Of a stretch of DNA of 64,000 nt, positions 48,978-61,578 are shown piece by piece. The stretch's first letter is position 1; each line of letters begins with the position of its first letter. Under the pieces are notes generated by a model. The model did no database searches, was not told the DNA's origin, and saw nothing but the letters and a program-made list of their open reading frames with translations. The position numbers and the translations under genes are program-made. The DNA is taken from NCBI GenBank assembly GCA_963691835.1, contig OY829383.1:3184457-3248456 (forward strand). Direction: 5' to 3'. The DNA comes from Thalassobaculaceae bacterium. GTDB taxonomy: Bacteria > Pseudomonadota > Alphaproteobacteria > Thalassobaculales > Thalassobaculaceae.

Positions 48978-50780
48978 ATGCCGCTCGGTCGAAACTACCC
49001 TCAAGTGGGACTTATCGCAGTTACCGTGGCGGTCTTGGCCGGGATCGCCTTCACATATTTTTCGGAACGTCAGCTTCTGCGGGACCGGGAAATCAAGTCC
49101 CTGCAGATCCAGGCCGTAGAATTGACGGATGCCTTCAGGCGGTCTCTCAGGGTCACGACCGCGAACATGACAAGCGTTGCCGCCTACTTCGAGGCAAGCG
49201 ACAGCGTAGCGGAGCCCGAGTTCCATACCTTCATCGACGCATCCGGCTTCTTCTCCGAGGGTCGGCATATCCGGGCAATCGCGATCATGCCTGTTCTAAG
49301 GAATCAGGACATTGCGAGCTTCAACGAAGCGATGGCGGCGCGCACATCCGTTCGGCTGGGCCTTGGATATCCGGAGTGGTCGGGTGTGGCAGATACCGAA
49401 GCCCCGCTGACGATCCCGGCAACCTATGTGGAGTCCCCGGCTGGGCGTTCTGGCGTTGTGGGGTTCAACCTTGCACAGAGCCAGGAGCGTATGGAGGCCG
49501 CCCGGTCCGCCCGGGAAACAGGATCGATCGTAATGACAAGGCCGGTTGCCCTGTCGCAAGACGATGTCGCATCAAGCCAAAGCGTGCTTCTTGTGGCCTA
49601 TACCCCTCATGGCCGCCTGGGCTTGCGGGCCAATCTGACAGAGCGAGCCAGGCCCACGTTCATCGGTGTGGGCTACACCCCGGGCTTCCACATCGCCGAT
49701 ACTTTCAAGGACAATCCATCGGACCTGTCCGTCATGGTCGAAGACGTGACGGACGAGGGGACGTCGATCCCGATTTTTGATGGTGTCGAGCTTGAGGAAA
49801 CAACGGCTGTTGCGTCCTCGAAGATTACATTTGCAGGGCGTGATTGGCGACTGAACTTCTTCGCGCCGTCAGAGCGGTTGATGGCGACACCGGACTGGCT
49901 TCATCTGTTTCTGGTGATCAGCATCACGCTGACATTCGCGGTGGCCTTCAGCGCGCTCCGTCTCATCAACAGCGAGGCGACATTGGCCAGCCGCGTCCGC
50001 GAACGAACGGCCCAACTGGCGGATCAGAACGTCAGGCTTCAGAACGCGCAGACGGTCACGCAGGAGGCGTTGGTCAAGGCGCAGCAGGTCAACAAGATGA
50101 AGTCCGAGTTCCTTGCAACAATGTCCCATGAATTCAGAACGCCACTCAACGCGATCATCGGTTTCACCGACTTTCTGATCAATTACCGAAGCGACGCAAA
50201 CCGGGAGAAGACCGGCGAATACCTTCAGGACATCAAAACCAGTGGATATCACATGTTGGAGCTGGTCAACGAGATACTCGATGCCGCATCGCTTGAAGTG
50301 GGAAAGAGGGAGCTATCACTGGAAGAATTTGACATTTCTTCTGAGCTTCAGGAGGCCATGAACTCTCTCAGGAGCCTCAGCAATCAGAAGAAGATCACTT
50401 TGATCATGAAGAAACCGGAAACCGCGGTGGATGTGAGACTCGATAGAACCGCGATACGGCAGATCTTCCTCAACCTCCTGTCCAACGCGATCAAGTTCTC
50501 TCCTCAGTCTTCCGTGGTCGAGGCTAACATCCATGCCGAGCCGGGGCAGGTGCAGATTGAGTTTCTCGACAACGGCCCGGGAATCCCGTCAAACGCTCTG
50601 GAAAAGATCACTCTGCCGTTCACCCGGGCGGAAAACGATCCGATGCTGACGAAGGAAGGGACCGGTCTCGGTCTGTCCGTCGTCAAGGGCCTTGTGGACC
50701 TCCACGGTGGTGAGCTGACGATTCAAAACCGAGACGGTGGCGGCGCCCTTGTCCGTGTGACCCTTCCGAGTACTCTGTAA
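48978..50780 (+). CDS. Sensor histidine kinase with a periplasmic CHASE-like domain
   Basis: TM helix, a ~270-aa extracytoplasmic region, a second TM helix and a coiled coil. HisKA box SEFLATMSHEFRTPLNAIIGF and HATPase_c (NLLSNAIKF...DNGPGIP...GTGLGLSVVKGLVDLHGG). No receiver domain. Confidence 0.85.
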   Translation: MPLGRNYPQVGLIAVTVAVLAGIAFTYFSERQLLRDREIKSLQIQAVELTDAFRRSLRVTTANMTSVAAYFEASDSVAEPEFHTFIDASGFFSEGRHIRAIAIMPVLRNQDIASFNEAMAARTSVRLGLGYPEWSGVADTEAPLTIPATYVESPAGRSGVVGFNLAQSQERMEAARSARETGSIVMTRPVALSQDDVASSQSVLLVAYTPHGRLGLRANLTERARPTFIGVGYTPGFHIADTFKDNPSDLSVMVEDVTDEGTSIPIFDGVELEETTAVASSKITFAGRDWRLNFFAPSERLMATPDWLHLFLVISITLTFAVAFSALRLINSEATLASRVRERTAQLADQNVRLQNAQTVTQEALVKAQQVNKMKSEFLATMSHEFRTPLNAIIGFTDFLINYRSDANREKTGEYLQDIKTSGYHMLELVNEILDAASLEVGKRELSLEEFDISSELQEAMNSLRSLSNQKKITLIMKKPETAVDVRLDRTAIRQIFLNLLSNAIKFSPQSSVVEANIHAEPGQVQIEFLDNGPGIPSNALEKITLPFTRAENDPMLTKEGTGLGLSVVKGLVDLHGGELTIQNRDGGGALVRVTLPSTL

Positions 50781-50890: not shown

Positions 50891-51565
50891 CTACGACCCC
50901 ACCGCCGCGGCCATGATGGACTCGACGTGAACCGCCGCACAGTCGAGAACCGGGAACGCTGAGTCCTCTTCGCTATAGACCAAGGCCAGGTCCGTCCCAC
51001 CCAGTATGACCGCCTCTACACCGCTTTCCTTGATCAGTTGTTCACAAGCGGCATCAAACACGGCGCGTTGATCGTCGGTCACCGATCCGGCTGCCGCCAT
51101 CGTGACATAGGCGTCGTGAACATGATCCAGCATATCGCCTTGCGGCGGGATCACCTCGGCGGTGCGGACGCCGCCATAGAATCGGGTTTCCATGACGGTT
51201 CGGGTGCCCAGAACGCCGATCCGTTTCAGCTTTCGGGCTTCGATCGCGGCGCCAACCTCCAGCAGCATGTCGATCACGGGCAGCGGCGACGACTGCTTGA
51301 ACGCGTCGATGCAGAAGTGTCCGGCGATTGACGTAACCGCGACACAGCCGGCACCCGAGGAAACCAGGCGTTCGGTCAACCTGTTGTAAATGGCGACCTG
51401 GGCGTCGACACGGCCGTGCGCAAGATTGCCCAGCAGTGTGGGCGTATCCGCATGAACGATGGTCATGTCCAGATCTTCAGCCCTCGCGGCGAAGGCTTGG
51501 ATCAGACGCCGGTAGTAGTAGTCGGTCGCCGCGGGCCCAATACCACCGATGAGGCCGATCTGCAT
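50891..51565 (-). CDS. Aspartate/glutamate racemase family protein (second, divergent copy)
   Basis: MQIGLIGGIGPAATDYYYRRL...VAVTSIAGH...VILGGTDLAL. Start at the ATG at 51565. Confidence 0.7.
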   Translation of the reverse strand: MQIGLIGGIGPAATDYYYRRLIQAFAARAEDLDMTIVHADTPTLLGNLAHGRVDAQVAIYNRLTERLVSSGAGCVAVTSIAGHFCIDAFKQSSPLPVIDMLLEVGAAIEARKLKRIGVLGTRTVMETRFYGGVRTAEVIPPQGDMLDHVHDAYVTMAAAGSVTDDQRAVFDAACEQLIKESGVEAVILGGTDLALVYSEEDSAFPVLDCAAVHVESIMAAAVGS

Positions 51566-51694
51566 GCTGAGTTCCTTCCGGGATTTGAGCCTGAAGCGTG
51601 ATCGCGCCAACTGTCATCCGCGGGCATGGAGAACGCAAGAGAGCCCGCGTCGTGTCGCCCGAACCGCCGCACGGATGACTGTAGTAGTAAAGGC

Positions 51695-51718
51695 AAGTAA
51701 TTGGTCGGGGAGAGAGGA
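51695..51718. repeat. Distal att-type direct repeat (copy of the tRNA-Pro 3' end)
   Basis: aagtaattggtcggggagagagga. 19 nt (51700-51718) are identical to 61500-61518, and 23 of 24 nt match when extended to 51695/61495. Confidence 0.85.
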
Positions 51719-51826
51719 GCCGATAGGCCTTCATAAAACACAAGCGAAATCAGTATATTGCGCGTGAAGCAGTCAGTGTGTGTAGCACGCTGGTGTAGCA
51801 CCATCAATAGTCAGAACAAGCGACTT

Positions 51827-54049
51827 CTATACCTGAACTGGGATTTCGAGTGTAGGCCGGAGCGGCTCAAGCTGGGTTGCATATGCCCGAACAATTTGAT
51901 CGTATAGGCCCGTTACACCGCGGGCCTTCACGCTTACAATTAGAGCGTATGGCAGCGTTGCATCTGGAGCGAAATTGCGTCCCTCCAGCCGAGCATTGTA
52001 ATGCAGATCAAATACTGGATTTCTTAGAGACCGGCCCCGCATCCTTTTGGTAGCATGGAGGCAGTTTTCCCATTTCCAAGCATCACGTCGCAACTCGTCT
52101 TCAGTCGCTCCAGATTGAGCCGATCCAAAAAACGATGTCGTATTCGGGTGAAGTTGGTCGTCCCTTGAGAATTTTTCATCATGTGGACGGAATGCGATCT
52201 CAAGCCCTGATTGAGTATAGTTTCCGGGATGATGGGGGTCGGTTTGTGATTTGTAGCAAACAGTAGCCTTAATATTCACCATGCTACTAATTTGTGCCGG
52301 AGGCATGGGCACCTTTACTCTGACGTATTGGGCAGGCGATATTTCACCTTGATAAACTACTCGATACTCGTCATCAGCACACAGAACAATATCGTTTAAG
52401 TCTTGTGCGCAACGCCCCCAGCCGACCTCATGTAGGTCAAGGTCACTGGTCTCTGCCATATGAACAAGAAGCGCACGAATTGCCAGGTGTCCCAAGTCAG
52501 CGCCGAAATGCGCTCTAACACCAGTGCCCATTCTCAACACGCTGGGGGTAGCGAATGATGTGCCAGCTGTTGTGGTTAGCGTGGGGCTAGTTTCTGGGCC
52601 TAGAACAATGAATGGGCGTGCGAGGGAACCCCCAAAACCTACAAGATCGGGCTTTACTAGACCCGGGCTGCGTCCCGGTCCCACAGAGCTGTATGAGGCG
52701 CGCACCCAATTCGCATCGGTGGTATCGCACGCTCCGATCGCAAGAGCGTTTACGCAATCTGAGGGTACTTGAACCCTGTTCAGCCCAGTAGCTGCGTCAC
52801 TTTCACCGTCATTCCCAACCGCAATCATCGCAAGTGTATGGCTGCGCGATAGTCGATCATCCAGTACAGCAGTCCAAGCGTGGACGTCGTCATCCTCTAT
52901 GGGTAGGTACGGCCCGATGCTGAGATTGATAAAGTCATACTCGTGCTCTGAGAGCACGCCTTCTATCCGTTCAAGAACTTCATACAGTTCATGAACATTC
53001 TGACCCGGGTCTTCGTCGACGACCCTGTAGTGGTCTATCGCTGCGAAGGGTCGGGGAAAGGGGTTCTGAGGGTCTAGATGCCCAAAAAGTGCGGCGGATG
53101 TGACCGCTACGCCGTGTTCGAGAAGTGCAGGGCTCGCTGGCGACATACCCTCAATCTCATATGGCGTCACCCATTGAGTAATGGGATGTTCGTCGGGTAT
53201 TCCACCGTCAAAAATCGCGACGCGGGTTTGATCTGATATGGGAGGTTCATCGGGAAGCGTCGGACTTGTCGTTGGAATGGCTACCGTCCGAACAGTTGGG
53301 CGGAGCACTCGCAAATCTGGCATTCTCCTCAAGGCGCGAACTGACGAGAATGTAGCAATTTCTTCAGCTTGCTCTGAAGGCCCATCTATTTCAATGAAAC
53401 ACAAGCCTCTCGCATAGAACCGTCGCCCGAAGTCTCGACTTATCCCGCGAGCTTCGAGAAACCGGCCAAATGCGTCTAGCAGTTCGATCTCGCCCTCAAT
53501 TCCATTAGCATGGAGAACGACCTCCATCGCTAGTGTGCCCTCGTCTGGCAGGCCTCCTTTGATCTTTGCACGTGGATTAGGAGCCGAGATTTCCTCGATA
53601 GAAACGAGTTCCTCGGCGCTCCGTCGGGTCGATGACCAGTTTGGGAGGCTCTCACTCCATCGACGAAATGCGCTGCGAGACCCGCGCGCAAACAGTTCGG
53701 TGCTTACTGCCTCAGAAGGCACACGATCCCGTGAGCGCTTCTGGGGCGTCACTTTACGTGGACGACTGCCGACAACATCCATCCCAACATCGCGAAGCAG
53801 TTCCATTGGAAAGTATGACTTCGCGATGTATTCGGGGTTTAGGGTCAAAGAAAGGATTGCTTTATCATGGGGGCAGGCATCGTCTGGCAGTTGGTCCAAA
53901 GAGCCAACGGCGGTGGTTAGCATTGGTGTTAGCCGAGTTCGGGCCTCGCCAAATGTATAAGGAGCCAGCTTGGGCCCGCCTCCAGAACGAACTGTTACCG
54001 GTTCCGTAAGTCGTTCGCCTCTGCCAAGAAGGAAGTTCTGTTTCGCCAT
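51827..54049 (-). CDS. S8 (subtilisin-family) serine peptidase with large N- and C-terminal extra domains; IetS-like candidate
   Basis: 740 aa. Catalytic-triad motifs occur in subtilase order: RVAIFDGGI (Asp), LEHGVAVTSAALFG (His), IAVGNDGE (oxyanion Asn) and TAGTSFATPSV (Ser). No signal peptide. Starts 7 nt after the AAA+ ATPase stop. Confidence 0.8.
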   Translation of the reverse strand: MAKQNFLLGRGERLTEPVTVRSGGGPKLAPYTFGEARTRLTPMLTTAVGSLDQLPDDACPHDKAILSLTLNPEYIAKSYFPMELLRDVGMDVVGSRPRKVTPQKRSRDRVPSEAVSTELFARGSRSAFRRWSESLPNWSSTRRSAEELVSIEEISAPNPRAKIKGGLPDEGTLAMEVVLHANGIEGEIELLDAFGRFLEARGISRDFGRRFYARGLCFIEIDGPSEQAEEIATFSSVRALRRMPDLRVLRPTVRTVAIPTTSPTLPDEPPISDQTRVAIFDGGIPDEHPITQWVTPYEIEGMSPASPALLEHGVAVTSAALFGHLDPQNPFPRPFAAIDHYRVVDEDPGQNVHELYEVLERIEGVLSEHEYDFINLSIGPYLPIEDDDVHAWTAVLDDRLSRSHTLAMIAVGNDGESDAATGLNRVQVPSDCVNALAIGACDTTDANWVRASYSSVGPGRSPGLVKPDLVGFGGSLARPFIVLGPETSPTLTTTAGTSFATPSVLRMGTGVRAHFGADLGHLAIRALLVHMAETSDLDLHEVGWGRCAQDLNDIVLCADDEYRVVYQGEISPAQYVRVKVPMPPAQISSMVNIKATVCYKSQTDPHHPGNYTQSGLEIAFRPHDEKFSRDDQLHPNTTSFFGSAQSGATEDELRRDAWKWENCLHATKRMRGRSLRNPVFDLHYNARLEGRNFAPDATLPYALIVSVKARGVTGLYDQIVRAYATQLEPLRPTLEIPVQV

Positions 54050-54056
54050 CGATAAG

Positions 54057-55160
54057 TCAGCTTTCGGCAGGGTGAGCCTTGACGTGCTCCCTTATTGTGT
54101 CGCGAGCAACGCCAGTAAGCTCATGCGCTCTGCGCTGTGATGTGAGACCGGACTGAACAAGCTGGACTGCCATTCTAATGCGATCTGATTTTGAAAGTGA
54201 TTCTCCTGATAGTAGCGAAGATAGATGGTCGTTTAAACCCTTCCCATTCAGCGCAGCAGAACGGCGGGCCCTATTTAATGTCCGCTCCACGTCGCTAAAT
54301 GACAGCCCACCGAAGGCGACGGACAAAACGTCCGACCAATCGTCTGCGTTTTTGGTAAATGGATCGAGCTGCGACTTGATGAAAATCTGTGCTGCTTCCT
54401 GAGAAGGAAGATTGAACTCTACCAACTCCTCAAATCGCCTCCAAATTGCCGGATCAAGAAGTTCAGCATGATTAGTTGCGGCTATAAGAATGCCACTTGA
54501 GGGCCAGTCATCTAGTTGCTGAAGTAAAACCGTTACGAGGCGCTTGAGTTCTCCTATTTCTCCGCCGTCATCACGGCGTTTTGCTATCGCATCCAGTTCA
54601 TCTAGAAGCAAAATCCCGTCAATAGATTTTGCGTAATCAAGTACGTGACGAAGATTTGAGCCGGTTCGTCCCAGATAACTGCTCATTACTGCGGAAAGAT
54701 CGAGTATCAGTAAGGGGCGCTCAAGTTCACGGGCCAACCACCGGGCAGCCATAGTTTTGCCAACACCCGGGGGGCCAGTGAACAGAACTGTCCGAGTTGG
54801 CTCCAAGCCAACATCTGAAAGCGCCTTTGTGCTAGCGCGTTCTTCCATCAGACGCTCAAGTACTCCGCGTACCTTCTCGTCAAAAACAGGTTCGTGGGGT
54901 AGCTCAGGTGTTTCTTCAATACGTATCAGTTGAAAGCGCGTATCGGTGTCCACTGGTACGGGCAGCTCGGTGTTTCGACGCAAAGGTGATGAACGGGTTG
55001 GACGCTTCCTCAATAGCTCAACTAGAGCCGTGGATAGAGCCGCGCTCTCCGTGCGCTTTGCGACACGATGCAAAAAGGTCTGAACGTCCTGAGGCCGTCC
55101 GGATAGTGCTATCCTAGCCAGATGGACGAAATTATCTTCAATATCAGATTTATCGGCCAT
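54057..55160 (-). CDS. AAA+ ATPase (classic-clade AAA domain); IetA-like candidate
   Basis: 367 aa. Walker A FTGPPGVGKT, Walker B ILLLDELD, sensor-1 IAATNHAELLD and Arg finger AIWRRFE. The ~130-aa N-terminal domain is unknown. The C-terminal tail RAHELTGVARDTIREHV looks HTH-like. Confidence 0.85.
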   Translation of the reverse strand: MADKSDIEDNFVHLARIALSGRPQDVQTFLHRVAKRTESAALSTALVELLRKRPTRSSPLRRNTELPVPVDTDTRFQLIRIEETPELPHEPVFDEKVRGVLERLMEERASTKALSDVGLEPTRTVLFTGPPGVGKTMAARWLARELERPLLILDLSAVMSSYLGRTGSNLRHVLDYAKSIDGILLLDELDAIAKRRDDGGEIGELKRLVTVLLQQLDDWPSSGILIAATNHAELLDPAIWRRFEELVEFNLPSQEAAQIFIKSQLDPFTKNADDWSDVLSVAFGGLSFSDVERTLNRARRSAALNGKGLNDHLSSLLSGESLSKSDRIRMAVQLVQSGLTSQRRAHELTGVARDTIREHVKAHPAES

Positions 55161-55306
55161 GTTAGGCTTCGCATCCCCTTTAACGAGGGAATCATTGAAT
55201 CATGGTGTGGAAGAAAATTCAATAAGAAGATGGAAAAATCGTCCATTGGCTACGGGTGGTAGCCATTGATAGTGCCTGCTCGGGCTGTCGCTCTCGCCCG
55301 GTGACG

Positions 55307-55324
55307 TGTGCAACTCGTTGCACA
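55307..55324. promoter_or_regulatory. Perfect 8+8 palindrome between the orphan gene and the ATPase gene
   Basis: tgtgcaac-tc-gttgcaca lies 3 nt beyond the stop of the 476-aa ORF, inside the 167-bp spacer upstream of the ATPase gene. A second inverted repeat, tggctac-gggtg-gtagcca, is at 55247-55265. Confidence 0.35.
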
Positions 55325-55327
55325 AAA

Positions 55328-56758
55328 TCACCGGAACTGGCGGCGATCGACCCCCTCAAGGGCGGCGGTTAATGCTGATCCATAGGGTTCAGCAAGAATG
55401 TATCGAGGTTCTCTTGTGCGCTGGTCAGGTCGGGTGAGAACCAAAATACCATCACACAAGAGCTGGATGATCATTTGATCGATCCGATCGTCGCCGGTCG
55501 GAGAAATTCCCCCATTCATCAACAAGAGAAGCAGAACTCGTTCAACGGCGAATGGGTTGCCTGTTCCTGCGCGGGCGACTGCAGCAATCGCTGAACTGTA
55601 GAGATGTAATGGGTTGTCGAGGCGGAGGCTTACGTCTGGAAGCGCCGACAGCAGTCGTTCGAGACGCTCTCGTGCGTCATTGCGAAGGAAATCGAGCATA
55701 GTGACCAATCCGTCGAAAGAAGTGGCAAACCGGTTCTGGGTCGCCCTACTGCCAAATATTTGGCGGACATTCCTCAAATACCGAACTTCGAACCTCAATC
55801 GGTCATATTCCTTGGCGTATACAGCTATTTCGACGTACCGGTTGTTTGTGGTTGCGATGACGGAGATTGCATTCCTCAACTGACGCCAACGGCCACGCCC
55901 GGGCTCACGATAAGGGCGGGCCGGTGGCAAGTCGTAGTCGGTAGCTAACGTGTCCTTGGATACAGCGAACAAAGCTGGGCGTAGGTGATGGACAAACGAA
56001 ATCGCATCAGGGACACGATACTCCCAAAAAACTTCACATCTGCGCATGATCCAGTTGGACCACGGCAGGTCGACTAAAGCATCAAAGTCGCCAAGCTCAG
56101 CGGCTGAACGAATGCGTTGATCGAATGGCTCAGCCAATATGCTTGGCGGGAGACCGTCTTCGCTGCTTACCGTTTCAAGCAGCTCGGAAAACCCGTTGAG
56201 AAGATTGGACAATGCGTTGACGCTAGCAGGGAAGAATGGGCGTAGGGTTCGCCATTGCTCCAGTGGAAGAAAGTTATCGGAGCCATCCAATGATAACGCA
56301 GAAAGCCGCTCTGTGATTTCCGGATGCCTAAGCAGAGTGCTTACGGCTGTAGCCTCTTCGTAAACTGTGTCATTTGGGGCGTGAGCGAGAAGCCTTGTGA
56401 GGCTCACAACGAGGTCAACCGAAGTGCGAGCGCGCTCAATCGAAACAGTTTGTCGGGCAGTGTGACGCTCTACAGAAAGGTCAACTGCCCCGGATGTGCT
56501 TAGCTTGAACGAAGCAACAGCGTCACTGTTCGTTTTAACGGATATCCGCTGCGCATTGTAGCGAGGTATCTGAAAAGGTCCGGTGCCTGCGAGAAGTTCA
56601 AGAAAACCTCGCCTTGAGGACGGAGACGAAAAGGCAATGCGCCCACTGTTGAATTGAAGGTCGATACGGTCGAATTGGGCTTCGTCTAAAGAGGGCGTTA
56701 TACCAGCTTGAAAGGGAGTGATATTCGGTCTGGGTCTATAACGGACGCGTCTTGCCAT
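55328..56758 (-). CDS. Hypothetical 476-aa protein (island cargo, no recognised family)
   Basis: Long uninterrupted ORF co-oriented with the ATPase/protease genes and of the same low-GC composition. The only motif-level hint is RYVEIAVYAKEYDRLRFEVRY, reminiscent of the Y-x-K...R-x-E pattern of Rep_trans-type initiators/relaxases. This is a weak hint. Confidence 0.65.
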   Translation of the reverse strand: MARRVRYRPRPNITPFQAGITPSLDEAQFDRIDLQFNSGRIAFSSPSSRRGFLELLAGTGPFQIPRYNAQRISVKTNSDAVASFKLSTSGAVDLSVERHTARQTVSIERARTSVDLVVSLTRLLAHAPNDTVYEEATAVSTLLRHPEITERLSALSLDGSDNFLPLEQWRTLRPFFPASVNALSNLLNGFSELLETVSSEDGLPPSILAEPFDQRIRSAAELGDFDALVDLPWSNWIMRRCEVFWEYRVPDAISFVHHLRPALFAVSKDTLATDYDLPPARPYREPGRGRWRQLRNAISVIATTNNRYVEIAVYAKEYDRLRFEVRYLRNVRQIFGSRATQNRFATSFDGLVTMLDFLRNDARERLERLLSALPDVSLRLDNPLHLYSSAIAAVARAGTGNPFAVERVLLLLLMNGGISPTGDDRIDQMIIQLLCDGILVLTRPDQRTREPRYILAEPYGSALTAALEGVDRRQFR

Positions 56759-56817: not shown

Positions 56818-57453
56818 CTAGTGCAATCCCAGCCGAGTGACCAACCTTCTAACGGTCGTGCGCTGCCAAGTCTTGCCGGTGCTGGTTTGCACGCTGAGTT
56901 CATTTAGCGCCTGCGCTAGTGCCTCGTAGCGTGTTGCGCCATGCTGCGCGACGAGGCGCTCTAAGATGGGGGCCATCTCGCGAGCGAACGCATCCGCCGC
57001 TGCACGGTTCTCCCTCGCGCGGTCGATGCCGGTAACGCCCAAGGCCACGCCCCTTGCCTTCGCTGCCGCCAATGCTGATTTCGTTCGCGCGCTGATCAGC
57101 TCTCGCTCGTGCTCGGCGAAGGCCGCGAGCATGTGCACCATGAGCCGATTGGCATGGGGGTTATCGGTCGCTACGAAATCTACGCCGCTTTCCATTAGGC
57201 CGCTGACGAAGTGGACGTTGCGGGCGAGACGGTCGAGTTTCGCGATGACCAGTGTCGCTTTCCGGCGGCGGCACATCGAGATTGCCGCACTGAGTTCTGG
57301 GCGATCCTTACGCTTGCCGCTCTCGACCTCGGTGAAGGTCTCGATCAGGTCGCCACGGTCCACTGATACGAAACGCTCCACGGCTTCCCGCTGCGCTTCC
57401 AACCCAAGACCGGACTGGCCTTGTCGATCCGTGCTGACGCGGAAGTAGGCCAC
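56818..57453 (-). CDS. Serine recombinase (resolvase/invertase family)
   Basis: VAYFRVSTDRQGQSGLGLEAQREAV (catalytic Ser box)...LVIAKLDRLARNV...ISARTKSALAAAKARG. The start is uncertain: GTG at 57453 or TTG at 57495. The ATG at 57663 would overlap the neighbouring gene by ~100 nt. Confidence 0.8.
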   Translation of the reverse strand: MAYFRVSTDRQGQSGLGLEAQREAVERFVSVDRGDLIETFTEVESGKRKDRPELSAAISMCRRRKATLVIAKLDRLARNVHFVSGLMESGVDFVATDNPHANRLMVHMLAAFAEHERELISARTKSALAAAKARGVALGVTGIDRARENRAAADAFAREMAPILERLVAQHGATRYEALAQALNELSVQTSTGKTWQRTTVRRLVTRLGLH

Positions 57454-57559
57454 GAACCGCTTGCTGGGTAGCGTCTCTTTGCCCTCCGGTGACAAGTGGA
57501 GGACCGTTCTTTTGTCACCAGATGTCCCGTTTTCCGCTAGGGGACCGATTTTCCTGTCC

Positions 57560-58231
57560 TCAAACACGGGTGGTTGCCTGCACTTCAGTGCACCGGGGTG
57601 CACACGCGATAGCTTTGTTACTGAAGACCGGGAAACCCGTATAGCGATCCGAGTGATCCCCATACGCGTCCAGCCAGCCGTCCCGAACGAGCCACCGTTT
57701 GGGACGCTGGTAGGTGAAGACCTCGCGTATTGGCCGCTCGTGCCATCCCACGTTGAACGTCCCCGGCGAGGTGAAGAAGGTTAGGCGGTGGTAGGGCAGA
57801 TGATCGTGTACCCACCAAGCCATCTGGTTCGATGTCTCTGCCCACGGGCCATGATCGGCCAGCCACGGAACGGCGATACAGGCCGCAGCGCCCCGGTAGC
57901 CCTGCTCGTCCAGCAAGTCCCACACGTGATAGGCCGCGTTCTTCGCGTTGCTAGCGCACTTGAGCCGCCGCTGCGCGCCGAACGCGTTGAGTGCGAGAGA
58001 GCGGTAGCCGGATCGGACGATGATCGGCCCGAACGCTTCTGCGATCGGCTCTAGGATCGCTTCGCACAACTGTTGCCCGTTCTCGATGGCGAGGTCTGGG
58101 TCTACTGGGACGTTCGGCAGGCGATAGAACGCCGCAATCTCTGAATGCAGGAACTGCCGCATCTGGAAGTGCTTGGACAGACGCACCCGCCCCAAACGCT
58201 CCAGATCGGAAAACCCCCCTATGTAGTGCAT
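57560..58231 (-). CDS. Peptidase M15 (Peptidase_M15_3 / D-Ala-D-Ala carboxypeptidase-fold)-like protein, no signal peptide
   Basis: LSKHFQMRQFLHSE...LCEAILEPIAEAFGPIIVRSGYRSLALNA follows the N-terminal consensus of M15_3 peptidases as I recall it. The downstream H/D metal-ligand spacing (AAYHVWDLLD) looks atypical. Confidence 0.45.
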   Translation of the reverse strand: MHYIGGFSDLERLGRVRLSKHFQMRQFLHSEIAAFYRLPNVPVDPDLAIENGQQLCEAILEPIAEAFGPIIVRSGYRSLALNAFGAQRRLKCASNAKNAAYHVWDLLDEQGYRGAAACIAVPWLADHGPWAETSNQMAWWVHDHLPYHRLTFFTSPGTFNVGWHERPIREVFTYQRPKRWLVRDGWLDAYGDHSDRYTGFPVFSNKAIACAPRCTEVQATTRV

Positions 58232-58315: not shown

Positions 58316-59029
58316 TCACTCCAGCTTGCTCAACGCTGCCGGGATGTCGATACTTGGTCCTGCGTAGGCCGCGACGGGCAGTTTGTTGGCCCCCGCTGTC
58401 AGGTGGGGCATTCCCTTGATGTGCGTCATCGCCGTGCCGTTCACAGGCGCAATCAGCAAATCGACATTCAACGCCCGGCCCACCGCGTACAGCCCCATGA
58501 GATCGCGTGCACCGACGCCCATGGCCTGACAACCGACAAGACGAGCACCCTCCACTGTCTCCCATCCGCAGCGAATTGCATTGAACCTGCCGCGATCGAA
58601 CAGCGGATAGTTGGTGCTGTTGAGGCGGAACGCATAGTAACTCTCCAATGCGCCCTTTGCGGTCTTCGCATCGGCGCTCGTTGCCGCCGCCACCGCCGAG
58701 CCGCTAATCGCAGGTCCACCTGTGTGCATCGCGTTGCACTTGATTTTCCATCTGTTCTCAATGGCGTGTGCGAGGAGAGCATAGAACGAGACGCCAGTCT
58801 GCTCCTCCAACGGTTTGTTGAGCTTGCGGACTTCCGCCTCGGCCCATTCATCGGCCTTCGCGATGTCCGTGAACCGCCTCTGGCTCTCGCGCGTGATCTC
58901 CAGCGACTGACGCTCGTACTCGCAGTACGCGGGGAGCGCCGCTTCCGTGACTTCCGCTGCAACGGACACATTCGCCACGCCAGCAACAACCGCGAAAGCA
59001 ACCATCGCGCCCACAAGCCTTCTCGTCAT
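58316..59029 (-). CDS. Hypothetical secreted protein
   Basis: 237 aa with signal peptide MTRRLVGAMVAFAVVAGVANVSVA/AE, four Cys residues, and no recognised domain. Confidence 0.55.
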   Translation of the reverse strand: MTRRLVGAMVAFAVVAGVANVSVAAEVTEAALPAYCEYERQSLEITRESQRRFTDIAKADEWAEAEVRKLNKPLEEQTGVSFYALLAHAIENRWKIKCNAMHTGGPAISGSAVAAATSADAKTAKGALESYYAFRLNSTNYPLFDRGRFNAIRCGWETVEGARLVGCQAMGVGARDLMGLYAVGRALNVDLLIAPVNGTAMTHIKGMPHLTAGANKLPVAAYAGPSIDIPAALSKLE

Positions 59030-59155: not shown

Positions 59156-59506
59156 ATGGAACTTCGGGTACTCGTCGGACAAAGGACCAGGTCTTTGCGC
59201 CGCGCTGCGGGACAAACGCAGCGGGACCTTGCGGACGCGCTTGGGCGTCAGGAGGAAACGATCAGCGCGATTGAGCGGGGATTGAACCTGCCCAGCGAGG
59301 ATACGTTGATCGGGCTCAGCCGGGTGCTTGACGTTCCGGTGCACGCCTTCTTCGAGGTCGGCGACATCTCGGCCAAGGATCGTGAGAGGGAAGCGATGAT
59401 TGCCGAGGTGCTTGCCCTGTGTCGGCAACTCCCCAAACGGGATTTGGAAATCGCCCTTCGTCAGGTCGAAGCGTTCTCACCCAAGCCGCCGTCAGAGGCT
59501 CTCTGA
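59156..59506 (+). CDS. XRE-family helix-turn-helix transcriptional regulator
   Basis: GQRTRSLRRAAGQTQRDLADALGRQEETISAIERGLNLPSEDTLIGLSRVL is a canonical HTH_3 (Cro/C1) domain. It is the only plus-strand gene on the island. Confidence 0.8.
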   Translation: MELRVLVGQRTRSLRRAAGQTQRDLADALGRQEETISAIERGLNLPSEDTLIGLSRVLDVPVHAFFEVGDISAKDREREAMIAEVLALCRQLPKRDLEIALRQVEAFSPKPPSEAL

Positions 59507-59552: not shown

Positions 59553-61358
59553 CTAGGGCTCTCTGCGTGCCTCGGAGGCGCTCGGGTATAGGTGCGAGAG
59601 GTCGAGGTCGGGGTACTCGATCAGCGCCACCAGCTTTGCCAGTTCATCAATCGGGTAGTCGCCACCGTACCGGCTAGCCATACCCTTGCCGTCGCTCCAC
59701 CCGAATACGTCGTCGATCTTTTCGTCCGCGCGATGGCCTGCCTCTCGAAATAGATCGGCGCGGCGGAGTGCCTGTCGGGCCGTGTGCCGGAAGGAGTGGA
59801 AGTCCACGTTGTTTCCATCAACGCCGACAGCCTTGCGGAAGGTCCGGTACAGCTTGGAGAACCGGTAGCTTGGTTTCCTGCCTTCGATCAGCATCTCCGG
59901 GAAAAGGGCGCCATTGCCGGAACGTCGGCACTGTCCAACGAACTCAAGGAAACCCAGTTTCACCAACTCGGGGTGAACCGGAACGTCCCGGATTGCGTTC
60001 CGCGTCTTCACGGACATCCATTCCTCGTCGTTGCAGATCGACAGGTATGGGGTGCCCGCGTCAGTTGCTCGCACGTCTTGTGCTCGAAGCTGACAAAGTT
60101 CGCCAGCACGGGCTCCCGTGAAAAGCCCGAGAAGGGGTAGCCAGAACCGGCCTCGTTTTGGTCGGTTGGGACCGGGCCTGTTGAACCCATACTCGTCGTT
60201 GCGGCATCCGGTGTAGAGCGGTGAATTGAATAACGCGCGGAGGTCTTCGATCTCGTAGGCGGTCCGATGCTTCCGCTTGCCATCCTTGGAGCGAGTGGGT
60301 TCGATCAACTCGAAAGGGTCGCTGGTCATCAGCTCGTGACGACGGCACCAGCGAACGAACCTTCTTAACTCCCGTTCGTAGTCGGCCCTGACCCTTTCCG
60401 AGATAGGTAGCTGACCGTCCTGTTCAGCAGCGGTTACCGCTTCGGCAAGTGATAGCTCCGGATACTTCTTGCGGCGGTTCGTTGGAAGTCTGGCGGTCGA
60501 GCGTAGGAAGGCCTCGACATCCCGAGCCTTCATTTCATCGACTTGGAAGGTGTCGCCGAAATGGCTGCGGATCACCTCGTGCCATCTGGAGACCTTCGAT
60601 GCCTGCTCATGGTCGCTGGACGAGCGTGATGCTGCCGTTTCTTGTGCGAACCGTTCGAGCGCGTCCTTGATGTTGGTGCCGGAACCTCGTCGCACGGTTC
60701 CGGATTTTCGCTCTGTCTCAAACGGATCGTCATTTCCAAACAGATGATCCCGGATCGCCTGATCCTCGCCGGTCTCCAGCGTCTGGAGATGCCGACGCTC
60801 CAGCTCCATCATCGCTTGGCGCAGAAGCTCGGTCAGATGGTCATGTTCTGGATCGCCGACATTGCCCGCATACCCATGCTCGGTAAGTAGCGCGTTTGCT
60901 ATGTCTTGAGTTGCGGCGAGTGTTCCGCCGTCGTCGGGATCGGCAAGTTGGGCCAACATAGAACGAGCATCGTCGATGGCCTCATCGAGATGTTCGGGTG
61001 TTCCCGCCCAGCGGTCTGCCAGCTCCTGCCGATACCACCGCCGCGCAAGTTCGGTCGCAGCCGAGCGGGTCAGAGGATTTAGTTCCCCGCTCTGCAATGC
61101 CTCACGGCGTGTACGCCTTAGGCGTTCTTGACGGGTCGGCGCACGTTGACGAACACGCACGCCGGGATGGTCCAACTCGAACTGCTTGCGTTCGAACTCG
61201 TCGCGCCATCTGGCAGACACTTCGTACCAAGCGCGCTCGGCCTCGGCTCGATCCTCAGTGCCGAGTGATACCCATATCTGCGACTTGCCGTAGAGGTCCC
61301 GCAGGCCACGGGGGACAGTGGCACGGTAGTACCACATCCGTGACCGCTTCCGGGTCAT
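59553..61358 (-). CDS. Tyrosine-type site-specific integrase
   Basis: C-terminal catalytic domain with GARAGELCQLR (Arg), HSFRHTARQ (H-x-x-R) and MASRYGGDY (Tyr). The long N-terminal arm-binding region WYYRATVPRGLRDLYGK is typical of alphaproteobacterial island integrases. It sits adjacent to the tRNA. The start may be 61358, 61337 or GTG at 61409. Confidence 0.85.
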   Translation of the reverse strand: MTRKRSRMWYYRATVPRGLRDLYGKSQIWVSLGTEDRAEAERAWYEVSARWRDEFERKQFELDHPGVRVRQRAPTRQERLRRTRREALQSGELNPLTRSAATELARRWYRQELADRWAGTPEHLDEAIDDARSMLAQLADPDDGGTLAATQDIANALLTEHGYAGNVGDPEHDHLTELLRQAMMELERRHLQTLETGEDQAIRDHLFGNDDPFETERKSGTVRRGSGTNIKDALERFAQETAASRSSSDHEQASKVSRWHEVIRSHFGDTFQVDEMKARDVEAFLRSTARLPTNRRKKYPELSLAEAVTAAEQDGQLPISERVRADYERELRRFVRWCRRHELMTSDPFELIEPTRSKDGKRKHRTAYEIEDLRALFNSPLYTGCRNDEYGFNRPGPNRPKRGRFWLPLLGLFTGARAGELCQLRAQDVRATDAGTPYLSICNDEEWMSVKTRNAIRDVPVHPELVKLGFLEFVGQCRRSGNGALFPEMLIEGRKPSYRFSKLYRTFRKAVGVDGNNVDFHSFRHTARQALRRADLFREAGHRADEKIDDVFGWSDGKGMASRYGGDYPIDELAKLVALIEYPDLDLSHLYPSASEARREP

Positions 61359-61494
61359 CAGTCCGGGGAATTTCGCCACGTCTTCCACGCCTCTGGTGTA
61401 GCACAGCACCAGAACACGCGCAGTCTGTAAGTGGCTGATATCGCTTGCTACCTGTCGAACCCTAAGGTTTCTGCGATGTTCACGAGGTAGCTAG

Positions 61495-61518
61495 AAGTGA
61501 TTGGTCGGGGAGAGAGGA
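61495..61518. repeat. Proximal att-type direct repeat (overlaps the 3' end of tRNA-Pro)
   Basis: aagtgattggtcggggagagagga. 61500-61518 is identical to 51700-51718 and covers the last 17 nt of the tRNA including CCA. Confidence 0.85.
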
Positions 61519-61578
61519 TTCGAACCTCCGGCCCCTGCCTCCCGAAGACAGTGCTCTACCAGGCTGAGCTACTCCCCG
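61502..61578 (-). tRNA. tRNA-Pro (anticodon CGG)
   Basis: Minus-strand sequence CGGGGAGTAGCTCAGCCTGGTAGAGCACTGTCTTCGGGAGGCAGGGGCCGGAGGTTCGAATCCTCTCTCCCCGACCA folds by hand into a cloverleaf. It has a 7-bp acceptor stem, D arm GCTC/GAGC, anticodon stem CTGTC/GGCAG with loop TTCGGGA, T loop TTCGAAT and an encoded CCA. Confidence 0.9.

Follow-up and report, generated by a model that had tools for sequence, protein, structure and literature searches.

The window examined here, a 64,000-nucleotide (nt) stretch of contig OY829383.1 from a Thalassobaculaceae bacterium (assembly GCA_963691835.1, positions 3,184,457 to 3,248,456 of the forward strand), carries two adjacent genes, ietA and ietS, that encode an AAA+ ATPase and an S8 serine protease. 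By profile matching and sequence comparison, the pair belongs to the known IetAS ATPase and protease defence/toxin-antitoxin family, and it is carried as cargo at one end of a 9.8-kb island integrated at a tRNA-Pro gene. The pair is probably a two-gene module in which IetA serves as the antitoxin ATPase and IetS as the toxin protease, operating by the mechanism proposed below. What is new in this analysis is the pairing, read from IetAS sequences, of a C-terminal helix-turn-helix (HTH) tail on the ATPase with a candidate operator upstream of its gene.

Family membership

The assignment to IetAS begins with profile searches of both proteins. IetA matches the PADLOC profile PDLC02196 with an E-value of 3.5e-79 (residues 25-362 aligned to positions 21-370 of 374), and IetS matches PDLC02197 with an E-value of 2.3e-41 (residues 22-722 aligned to positions 24-730 of 749), an alignment that extends beyond the S8 core. 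Three further PADLOC IetA profiles match IetA and six further IetS profiles match IetS. A first-pass annotation, made from the DNA letters alone, had named the operon an IetAS-like candidate, and these near-full-length hidden Markov model matches to both profiles support the name. The NCBIfam families IteA (IteA_antiphage, NF042959) and IteS (IteS_antiphage, NF042956) are the top matches of IetA and IetS, respectively, again near full length, at 226.9 bits against an equivalog cut-off of 510 and at 110.7 bits against a cut-off of 900. Because these scores lie under the equivalog cut-offs, the pair is placed in the same family but in a divergent subfamily, and not in the same narrow orthologous group. 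Full-length matches are also found in PHROG (IetA to phrog_3757, 2.4e-99; IetS to phrog_3964, 2.4e-152), while Pfam locates an AAA domain in IetA (E=6.5e-31) and a Peptidase_S8 domain at residues 281-545 of IetS.

The search for relatives of IetS scored 2673 sequences at an E-value of 1e-5 or lower. The best 120 of these 2673 are all about 740 amino acids (aa) long and at least 60% identical to the query, and the nearest (99%) comes from a Thalassobaculaceae metagenome-assembled genome. In 81 of the 82 related loci that were fetched, ietA lies immediately upstream of ietS, the exception being a contig that is truncated, and the commonest spacing between the two genes in relatives is a 4-nt overlap. 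The same gene order is kept in all 12 of the more distant plasmid and phage loci, one of which, in the Pf phage PfAC08, is annotated in its record as IetAS.

In the window, both genes are on the minus strand with ietA upstream. A gap of 7 nt (54050..54056) separates them, as had been stated in the first-pass annotation, which gave coordinates identical to those of the open reading frame list but no strand. The ATPase motifs quoted there are all present in the translation of IetA (GPPGVGKT at residues 129-136, LLLDELD at 183-189, AATN at 227-230 and RRFE at 241-244), as is the protease motif GTSFATP at residues 496-502 of IetS. The coordinates of the pair, of its domains and of the surrounding features are collected in Table 1.

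HTH tail, candidate operator and putative promoter

The C-terminus of IetA is predicted to fold as a tri-helical HTH, with helices at residues 324-336, 342-349 and 353-362 according to DSSP analysis of the AlphaFold 2 model. When searched in isolation, the tail reaches 23.4 bits against Pfam HTH_psq, for which the gathering score is 20.4. The suggestion of an HTH-like ATPase tail, based originally on the stretch TGVARDTIREHV (found at residues 349-360), thus gains from a passed family cut-off, a tri-helical predicted fold and co-variation with a promoter palindrome.

This palindrome is bipartite and is shared by relatives upstream of ietA in the form (T)GGA-x-y-A - N23/24 - T-y'-x'-TCC(A). Of 81 relatives, 50 have a perfect copy, compared to 0.2% of shuffled sequences, and 71 reach a score of 9/10 or more, compared to about 8% of shuffles. 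Its position is fixed, with a median of 81 nt ahead of the ietA start codon. Many relatives have a -35-like element, TTGAA(T/A), directly before the right arm, which places that arm between the -35 and -10 elements. From this conservation across loci, a putative ietAS promoter is proposed by eye, and a ribosome-binding site, AAAGGGGA, is read from the sequence.

The two arms of the palindrome co-vary with each other, and the type of arm corresponds to how the recognition helix begins. The type GGAAGA/TCTTCC, present in 27 loci in the scan, is accompanied by the helix start ARE in 19 of 28 cases (0 of 42 in all other classes). For GGACGA/TCGTCC (16 loci in the scan) the helix start is ARD in 15 of 19, and for GGACTA/TAGTCC (7 loci in the scan) it is SRD in 10 of 11. 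The operator also occurs together with a TGV[AS]R[DE]TIR tail as far afield as Kitasatospora (actinobacterial), Agrobacterium tumefaciens pAt and Komagataeibacter plasmids. The GGAnnA palindrome is absent at the Agrobacterium plasmid pTiC58, where IetA has no tail, and at 8 loci whose IetA has another HTH. Because the palindrome overlaps the promoter, co-varies with the HTH and is missing where the tail is missing or different, we infer that IetA represses its own promoter through the binding of its HTH to this palindrome.

The 8 loci with another HTH (L089, L090 and L091-L096) have IetA proteins that end in recognition helices different from those above. Two of them, L091 on a Xanthomonas plasmid and L095 in the Pf phage PfAC08, share an (A/S)TVSR helix and a palindrome of the form TGTTGCA-N8-TGCAACA. 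Operator specificity, as judged from these sequences, seems to have diversified by IetAS subfamily.

Architecture of the IetS protease

The catalytic core of IetS, delimited by alignment to subtilisin, holds an intact set of Asp, His, Asn and Ser residues (D281, H312, N413 and S498) that is invariant in 48 homologues. The N-terminus, MAKQNFLLGRGERLTEPV, as read from the sequence, has no hydrophobic stretch and agrees with the description of the protease as cytoplasmic and without a signal peptide.

The regions on either side of the core had been described as unexplained extra domains, and this description does not hold. Both are covered by the IetS profile, tblastn alignments with IetS cover 96-100% of the query even where identity falls to 29%, in sequences from Actinomycetota, Bacillota and phages, and many positions in both flanking regions are invariant across 48 sequences. 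By this conservation, the flanking regions are standard for the subfamily. The N-terminal region includes a conserved motif (N5, L7, G9, G11, E12 and R13), and the C-terminal domain includes the invariant blocks DPHHPGNYT and RRDAWKWENC.

A possible identity of these regions is suggested by the AlphaFold 2 model, which has a predicted local distance difference test score (pLDDT) of 81 and a predicted template modelling score of 0.83. DSSP assigns a helix at residues 33-52, followed by two tandem beta-alpha-beta-beta-alpha-beta modules at residues 63-155 and 172-248 and, after the S8 core, by seven beta strands within residues 561-708. The top Foldseek matches in the PDB are propeptide-bearing subtilases with 400-690 aligned columns, including ProN-Tk-SP (3afg; 1e-20, 585 columns), PCSK9 (681 columns), KP-43 and unprocessed pro-subtilisin E, and of these Tk-SP, KP-43 and PCSK9 bear a beta domain after the catalytic core. 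In the model, IetS looks like a pro-subtilase with a duplicated propeptide-like module and a C-terminal beta-sandwich. The isolated N- and C-terminal regions match no meaningful Pfam family, even at an E-value of 10, and the propeptide-like assignment is accordingly made at the level of the fold only.

Architecture of the IetA ATPase

The motifs of IetA are conserved among 81 homologues. Walker A, Walker B, sensor-1 and the arginines R241 and R242 are invariant across an alignment of 49 IetA sequences, as are all five residues of the pore loop (S160, S161, Y162, L163 and G164). In an alignment with Cdc48 D2, Y162 falls on the pore-loop tryptophan (SMWFGESE in 6chs versus SSYLGRTG in IetA). Cdc48 and p97 D2 are the best sequence matches of IetA in the PDB, and with the AlphaFold 2 model (pLDDT 81) the best Foldseek matches are FtsH, p97 D2, PAN, Vps4 and AFG3L2, all of which thread substrates through a pore. 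By sequence and predicted fold, IetA resembles substrate-threading unfoldases such as Cdc48 D2 and FtsH. A search by sequence for solved IetAS structures matched only subtilisins and generic AAA+ proteins.

The linker at IetA residues 54-76 (54933-55001, minus strand), which joins the N-terminal helical bundle to the AAA+ core, is nearly invariant in sequence (PTRSSPLRR...PVDTDTRF) even though the model predicts it to be disordered, with pLDDT below 50. Such a combination would be expected of a short docking or pseudo-substrate motif, which possibly makes contact with IetS.

Table 1. Features of the ietAS locus and of the island that carries it, in window coordinates
Feature	Position	Strand	Description
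ietA	54057..55160	minus	open reading frame of a 367-aa classic-clade AAA+ ATPase; predicted antitoxin and autorepressor
IetA domains by residue			three-helix bundle 2-52; linker 54-76; AAA+ core 79-250; lid 254-317; HTH 324-362
IetA Walker A, GPPGVGKT	54753..54776	minus	residues 129-136; invariant in 49 sequences
IetA pore-loop-1, SSYLG	54669..54683	minus	residues 160-164
IetA C-terminal tri-helical HTH (predicted)	54075..54191	minus	residues 324-362; recognition helix from A352-R353-D354
ietS	51827..54049	minus	open reading frame of a 740-aa cytoplasmic S8 subtilase; predicted toxin/effector
IetS N-terminal region	53300..54049	minus	residues 1-250
IetS S8 catalytic core	52415..53236	minus	residues 272-545; aligned to subtilisin
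IetS C-terminal beta-sandwich (predicted)	51830..52387	minus	residues 555-740
Predicted IetA operator, TGGACGA-N23-TCTTCCA	55208..55245	minus	left arm 55245..55239; right arm 55214..55208
Putative ietAS promoter	55194..55222	minus	-35 TTGAAT 55222..55217; 17-nt spacer holding the right operator arm; -10 TTCAAT 55199..55194
Ribosome-binding site	55181..55174	minus	read from sequence
476-aa near-orphan	55328-56758	minus	island backbone
Serine recombinase	56818-57663	minus	Pfam/PHROG matches
223-aa protein	57560-58231	minus	island backbone
237-aa protein	58316-59029	minus	island backbone
XRE HTH protein	59156-59506	plus	island backbone
Tyrosine integrase	59553-61409	minus	Pfam/PHROG matches
tRNA-side direct-repeat copy	61495-61523		covers 3' end of tRNA-Pro; site spans 61495..61578
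tRNA-Pro(cgg)	61502-61578	minus	island integration site
Distal direct-repeat copy	51695-51723		attachment-site remnant and island end; repeat family D3; 104 nt past the ietS stop codon
Asp/Glu racemase	50891-51610		housekeeping; just outside the island
CHASE histidine kinase	48978-50780		housekeeping; just outside the island

The integrative island

The size of the island is set by two copies of a 29-nt direct repeat, which are identical at 26 of 29 positions. From the tRNA end, the gene order is tyrosine integrase, XRE regulator, two proteins of unknown function, serine recombinase, 476-aa protein, ietA and ietS. The tRNA-Pro gene, the direct repeat, the tyrosine integrase and the serine recombinase are all located, which substantiates the earlier description of a tRNA-borne island with recombinases. 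The pair was also said to occupy the part of lowest GC content, and GC is indeed 0.51-0.55 at 52-57 kb versus 0.60-0.66 for most other parts of the window.

The order of integrase, XRE gene, one further gene, 223-aa gene, serine recombinase and 476-aa gene is syntenic in a distant element (L083) at 27-60% identity. The 223-aa gene is kept beside the recombinase both there and in the nearest related island (L003). Its product matches no Pfam family and has a weak match to the endolysin-annotated phrog_894 (E=6.8e-11, residues 16-83 only). As called, the recombinase open reading frame overlaps the 223-aa frame by 104 nt. Homologues and the Resolvase domain start near residues 62-71, so the true start of the recombinase is probably downstream and the overlap an artefact of open reading frame calling.

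Compared with L003 (1791-12220), the island is a mosaic. The ietS, ietA and 476-aa genes are 98-99% identical, the integrase is 90% identical and the serine recombinase and 223-aa genes about 80%, while the 237-aa and XRE genes are only 42% and 36% identical. This mosaic suggests that related islands have recently exchanged their cargo end.

The 476-aa gene has 3 relatives among 5.8 billion proteins, and its product matches no Pfam, PADLOC, PHROG or NCBIfam family. It probably has a function of the mobile-element backbone, as in L083 it is again found together with the serine recombinase and the 223-aa gene. Two perfect 7-bp inverted repeats are located between this gene and the pair: GTGCAAC-GA-GTTGCAC (55308-55323, minus strand), directly after the 476-aa stop codon, and TGGCTAC-N5-GTAGCCA (55246-55264, minus strand). 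Both precede the predicted ietA operator, and RNA folding of the intergenic region gives a z-score of -3.45. Half-sites similar to the first repeat, TGTTGCA/TGCAACA, occur ahead of ietA in Xanthomonas and in the Pf phage. The two repeats may be terminators or sites of another regulator.

Genomic contexts of relatives

The first-pass annotation had held that homologues found mainly in conserved housekeeping contexts would speak against a defence role. Relatives are instead found in hypervariable mobile contexts, where 524 of 589 families of flanking genes are seen in one locus only, and this speaks for a mobile, accessory role. These contexts include conjugative plasmids, prophage moron slots and defence-island-like clusters. 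The relative on pAMI8 adjoins the coupling protein of a type IV secretion system and that on a Kitasatospora plasmid adjoins RepL, while the defence-like neighbours of relatives comprise a UvrD and AAA pair, a GIY-YIG nuclease, caspase-family proteins and CapP-like regulators. On the A. tumefaciens pAt and Komagataeibacter plasmids (L087 1-1265 and L088 1-1265), a caspase-family gene cluster lies divergent and just upstream of ietA, so that a second protease adjoins the IetAS pair.

In 37 of 81 relatives, the pair lies directly beside a cassette of polyubiquitin-like, inactive-E2 and E1-JAB genes. The loci concerned lie among L002, L019 and L027-L078 (for example L043 6265-9990 and L002 10571-15210). 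Among the parts of the cassette, a ThiF/E1-JAB fusion is present in 28 loci and a Multi_ubiq protein in 19. These are joined by a small 110-aa protein and either by a divergent pair of XRE and ImmA/IrrE M78 genes (in 18 and 22 loci) or by a DUF6791-ThiF protein (in 8). The cassette has at least three arrangements, and in 13 loci the ThiF-JAB gene is co-directional and 131-193 nt upstream of ietA. It corresponds to class 6e of the 'polyUbl' operons, an uncharacterised class (Iyer et al., 2006), and to the cassette of pSYSX (PMC4963859). PADLOC does not include it, its similarity to known defence genes being limited to a weak one of its E1 to that of CBASS E1-E2 and one of its M78 protein to CapP, and a literature search found no paper linking ietAS with ubiquitin-like systems. 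The cassette is absent from the window.

Mechanism and alternatives

The mechanism proposed for the two-gene module joins these observations. IetA would assemble as a ring unfoldase of the Cdc48/FtsH kind, with Y162 as its pore-loop aromatic residue, and would use ATP to hold IetS inactive. IetS would be an unprocessed, pro-subtilase-like protein with two propeptide-like modules before its core and a beta-sandwich after it, and given this build its activity would probably be gated by the propeptide-like modules. The IetA HTH would bind the bipartite palindrome over the ietAS promoter and repress the operon, in the way of type II antitoxins. IetS would be released either through a phage protein that blocks or diverts IetA or through loss of the island, which would end the resupply of IetA. 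The released protease would then degrade cellular or phage proteins and growth would stop, which would result in aborted infection or in stabilisation of the island.

Several points weigh against this reading. The experimentally validated systems are distant, as the NCBIfam scores indicate (227 versus 510 bits for IetA and 111 versus 900 for IetS), and the IetS of the founding pTiC58 pair is only 26% identical over 206 residues. The predicted operator of the window itself has one arm mismatch. A consensus promoter scan made no ietA promoter call and produced counts equal to the shuffle expectation. The co-variation of the HTH with the operator, which is drawn from related sequences, is confounded, and thereby inflated, by shared ancestry. 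The propeptide-like assignment comes from a predicted structure and Foldseek matches, without a sequence family. Finally, the restraint of IetS by IetA may operate through unfolding, sequestration or transcriptional repression.

The pair might instead be mainly an addiction module, which kills cells that lose the island and contributes little or nothing to phage defence in this host. The founding ietAS was a plasmid-stabilising toxin-antitoxin pair on pTiC58, according to the accounts of it in PMC13069673 and PMC8562856, and relatives adjoin replication or transfer genes on conjugative plasmids (the Kitasatospora plasmid and pAMI8). The terminal position of the pair in a small integrative island and the layout of autorepressor and operator, typical of type II toxin-antitoxin modules, would suit this role equally. 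Homologues, on the other hand, protect from phage by abortive infection (bioRxiv 10.1101/2022.08.27.505566), and relatives occupy moron positions in temperate phages as well as defence-island-like neighbourhoods. Addiction and defence are, moreover, not mutually exclusive, and a role confined largely to addiction is considered unlikely, though far from negligible. A different possibility is that IetA and IetS form a constitutive ATP-dependent protease, similar to FtsH, Lon or PAN-proteasome, that performs quality control or specific processing and is no switchable toxin. FtsH, PAN and AFG3L2, the closest structural relatives of IetA, do feed proteases, the pore loop of IetA is conserved and the two genes are tightly coupled. 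Subtilases, however, are monomeric open-cleft enzymes and not chambered peptidases, and the sporadic mobile distribution, low GC content and hypervariable flanks of the pair are a poor fit to a housekeeping function. In homologues, furthermore, the ATPase protects against the protease and is not needed for its toxicity (PMC13069673, PMC8562856). A constitutive protease is regarded as very improbable.

A further alternative extends the system beyond two genes. By analogy with ietHAS, a known three-gene variant of IetAS, the upstream 476-aa protein could be a sensor or regulator of the pair. Its gene is co-oriented with ietA and lies 167 nt upstream of it, and in L003 it is 98% identical alongside an ietAS pair that is 99% identical. 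That near-identical island is, however, the only one of 81 other IetAS loci in which the gene is found, the other 80 being without it, and its sole distant relative (39% identity, in L083) follows the recombinase and 223-aa genes of another element. In addition, ietA appears to carry its own conserved operator and promoter, and two hairpins lie downstream of the 476-aa stop codon. Co-occurrence and the recombinase synteny in L083 largely rule out the 476-aa gene as a third IetAS component, and a three-gene system of this kind is hardly credible. A broader proposal has two parts: that IetA is a dual-function antitoxin, an HTH autorepressor fused to a Cdc48-like unfoldase that gates a zymogen-like subtilase with two propeptide-like modules, and that IetAS is the degradative arm of a bacterial pathway resembling the ubiquitin-Cdc48-protease system. 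The degradative-arm part is drawn from genomic context, that is, from the cassette beside the pair in relatives, and the joint proposal is judged quite improbable. If the degradative-arm part were true, the pair in the window would be a stand-alone version that works without tagging.

As a two-gene IetAS module, the locus itself is one more system of its family, located in a marine alphaproteobacterial island. The clade of approximately 740-aa proteins to which it belongs is of value for the handles it may give on the mechanism of IetAS, which is so far unsolved. The predicted pairing of operator and HTH would imply autorepression by IetA and offer a ready means of reporting when the system fires, and the two propeptide-like modules of IetS suggest where the ATPase acts. 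The link to the polyubiquitin-like cassette, if functional, would join a bacterial Cdc48-like ATPase, ubiquitin-like tagging and a protease.

Comparison with known systems

Contrary to the first-pass annotation, the family does not originate in the 2020 defence-island screen. It was described earlier, as a toxin-antitoxin pair that stabilises the plasmid pTiC58 (Yamamoto 2009, as cited in PMC8562856 and PMC13069673). This founding description fits the idea that the ATPase restrains a toxic protease. In homologues, the protease is the toxin and the ATPase the antitoxin that neutralises it, an ietA mutant could not be constructed and protease activity is required for phage protection (PMC13069673, PMC8562856). 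Phage protection has been reported for IetAS systems of Escherichia coli and Bacillus cereus (PMC13069673; bioRxiv 10.1101/2022.08.27.505566), and that of B. cereus acts by abortive infection triggered by the SPbeta protein YosG (bioRxiv 10.1101/2022.08.27.505566). The first-pass annotation called the mechanism unknown, and for the anti-phage activity it was still so described in 2026 (PMC13069673).

The founding pair (NC_003065 97873-101373) and the pair in the window have the same gene order and tight spacing, and both reside on an alphaproteobacterial mobile element. IetA of pTiC58 shows 34% identity across the AAA+ core (residues 46-284, E=2e-46), while the alignment of IetS has an E-value of 3e-8 and its N-terminal region differs. 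Both pTiC58 proteins match the PADLOC IetA and IetS profiles, and the two pairs are linked through these shared profiles. The pTiC58 IetA is shorter (328 aa), without the C-terminal HTH tail and without a GGAnnA palindrome upstream, and its IetS is longer (836 aa) with PDLC02198 as the best sub-profile. These differences in length, identity and sub-profile place the pair in the window in another IetAS subfamily than the founding member.

Operon layout and the combination of an ATPase antitoxin with an S8 protease toxin are also shared with Mycoplasma TA132/133 and with ietHAS, systems that do not tolerate inactivation of the ATPase in the presence of the protease (PMC13069673, PMC8562856). ietHAS differs in that it requires an extra SNF2 helicase, and the island was found to contain no helicase of the SNF2/DrmD-like kind that marks it. 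The Mycoplasma pair differs in that it is chromosomal and belongs to a minimal genome, its likeness to the pair in the window being one of gene organisation.

At the level of the single proteins, IetA shares the AAA+ core, the pore-loop aromatic residue and an arginine-finger pair in an RRF context with the classic-clade AAA+ unfoldases (Cdc48/p97 D2, FtsH, PAN and Vps4), and its N-terminal helical bundle and flexible linker are reminiscent of the MIT domain and linker of Vps4. Unlike these unfoldases, IetA combines only one AAA+ module with a C-terminal HTH, and in homologues it is genetically an antitoxin. The predicted fold of IetS aligns to the propeptide and C-terminal beta domain of Tk-SP (3afg), pro-subtilisin E (3whi), PCSK9 (5vlp) and KP-43 (1wmd), with the same beta-alpha-beta-beta-alpha-beta topology. 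It differs from these propeptide-bearing subtilases in being cytoplasmic, in its two tandem modules, its N-terminal motif and its AAA+ partner, and the identity is 11-18%. With type II toxin-antitoxin systems that have an autoregulating antitoxin, the pair in the window shares, by sequence, an antitoxin DNA-binding domain and a candidate operator that overlaps the -35 and -10 elements.

The closest comparison is with the catalogued IetAS systems (Gao_Iet; PADLOC, DefenseFinder and NCBIfam IteA/IteS). The pair differs from them as a divergent subfamily, with PDLC02196 and PDLC02197 as the best sub-profiles, and its anti-phage role is predicted by analogy. With them it shares an AAA+ gene followed by a gene for a cytoplasmic S8 protease of about 740-780 aa, near-full-length profile matches, intact catalytic residues and a mobile-element context.

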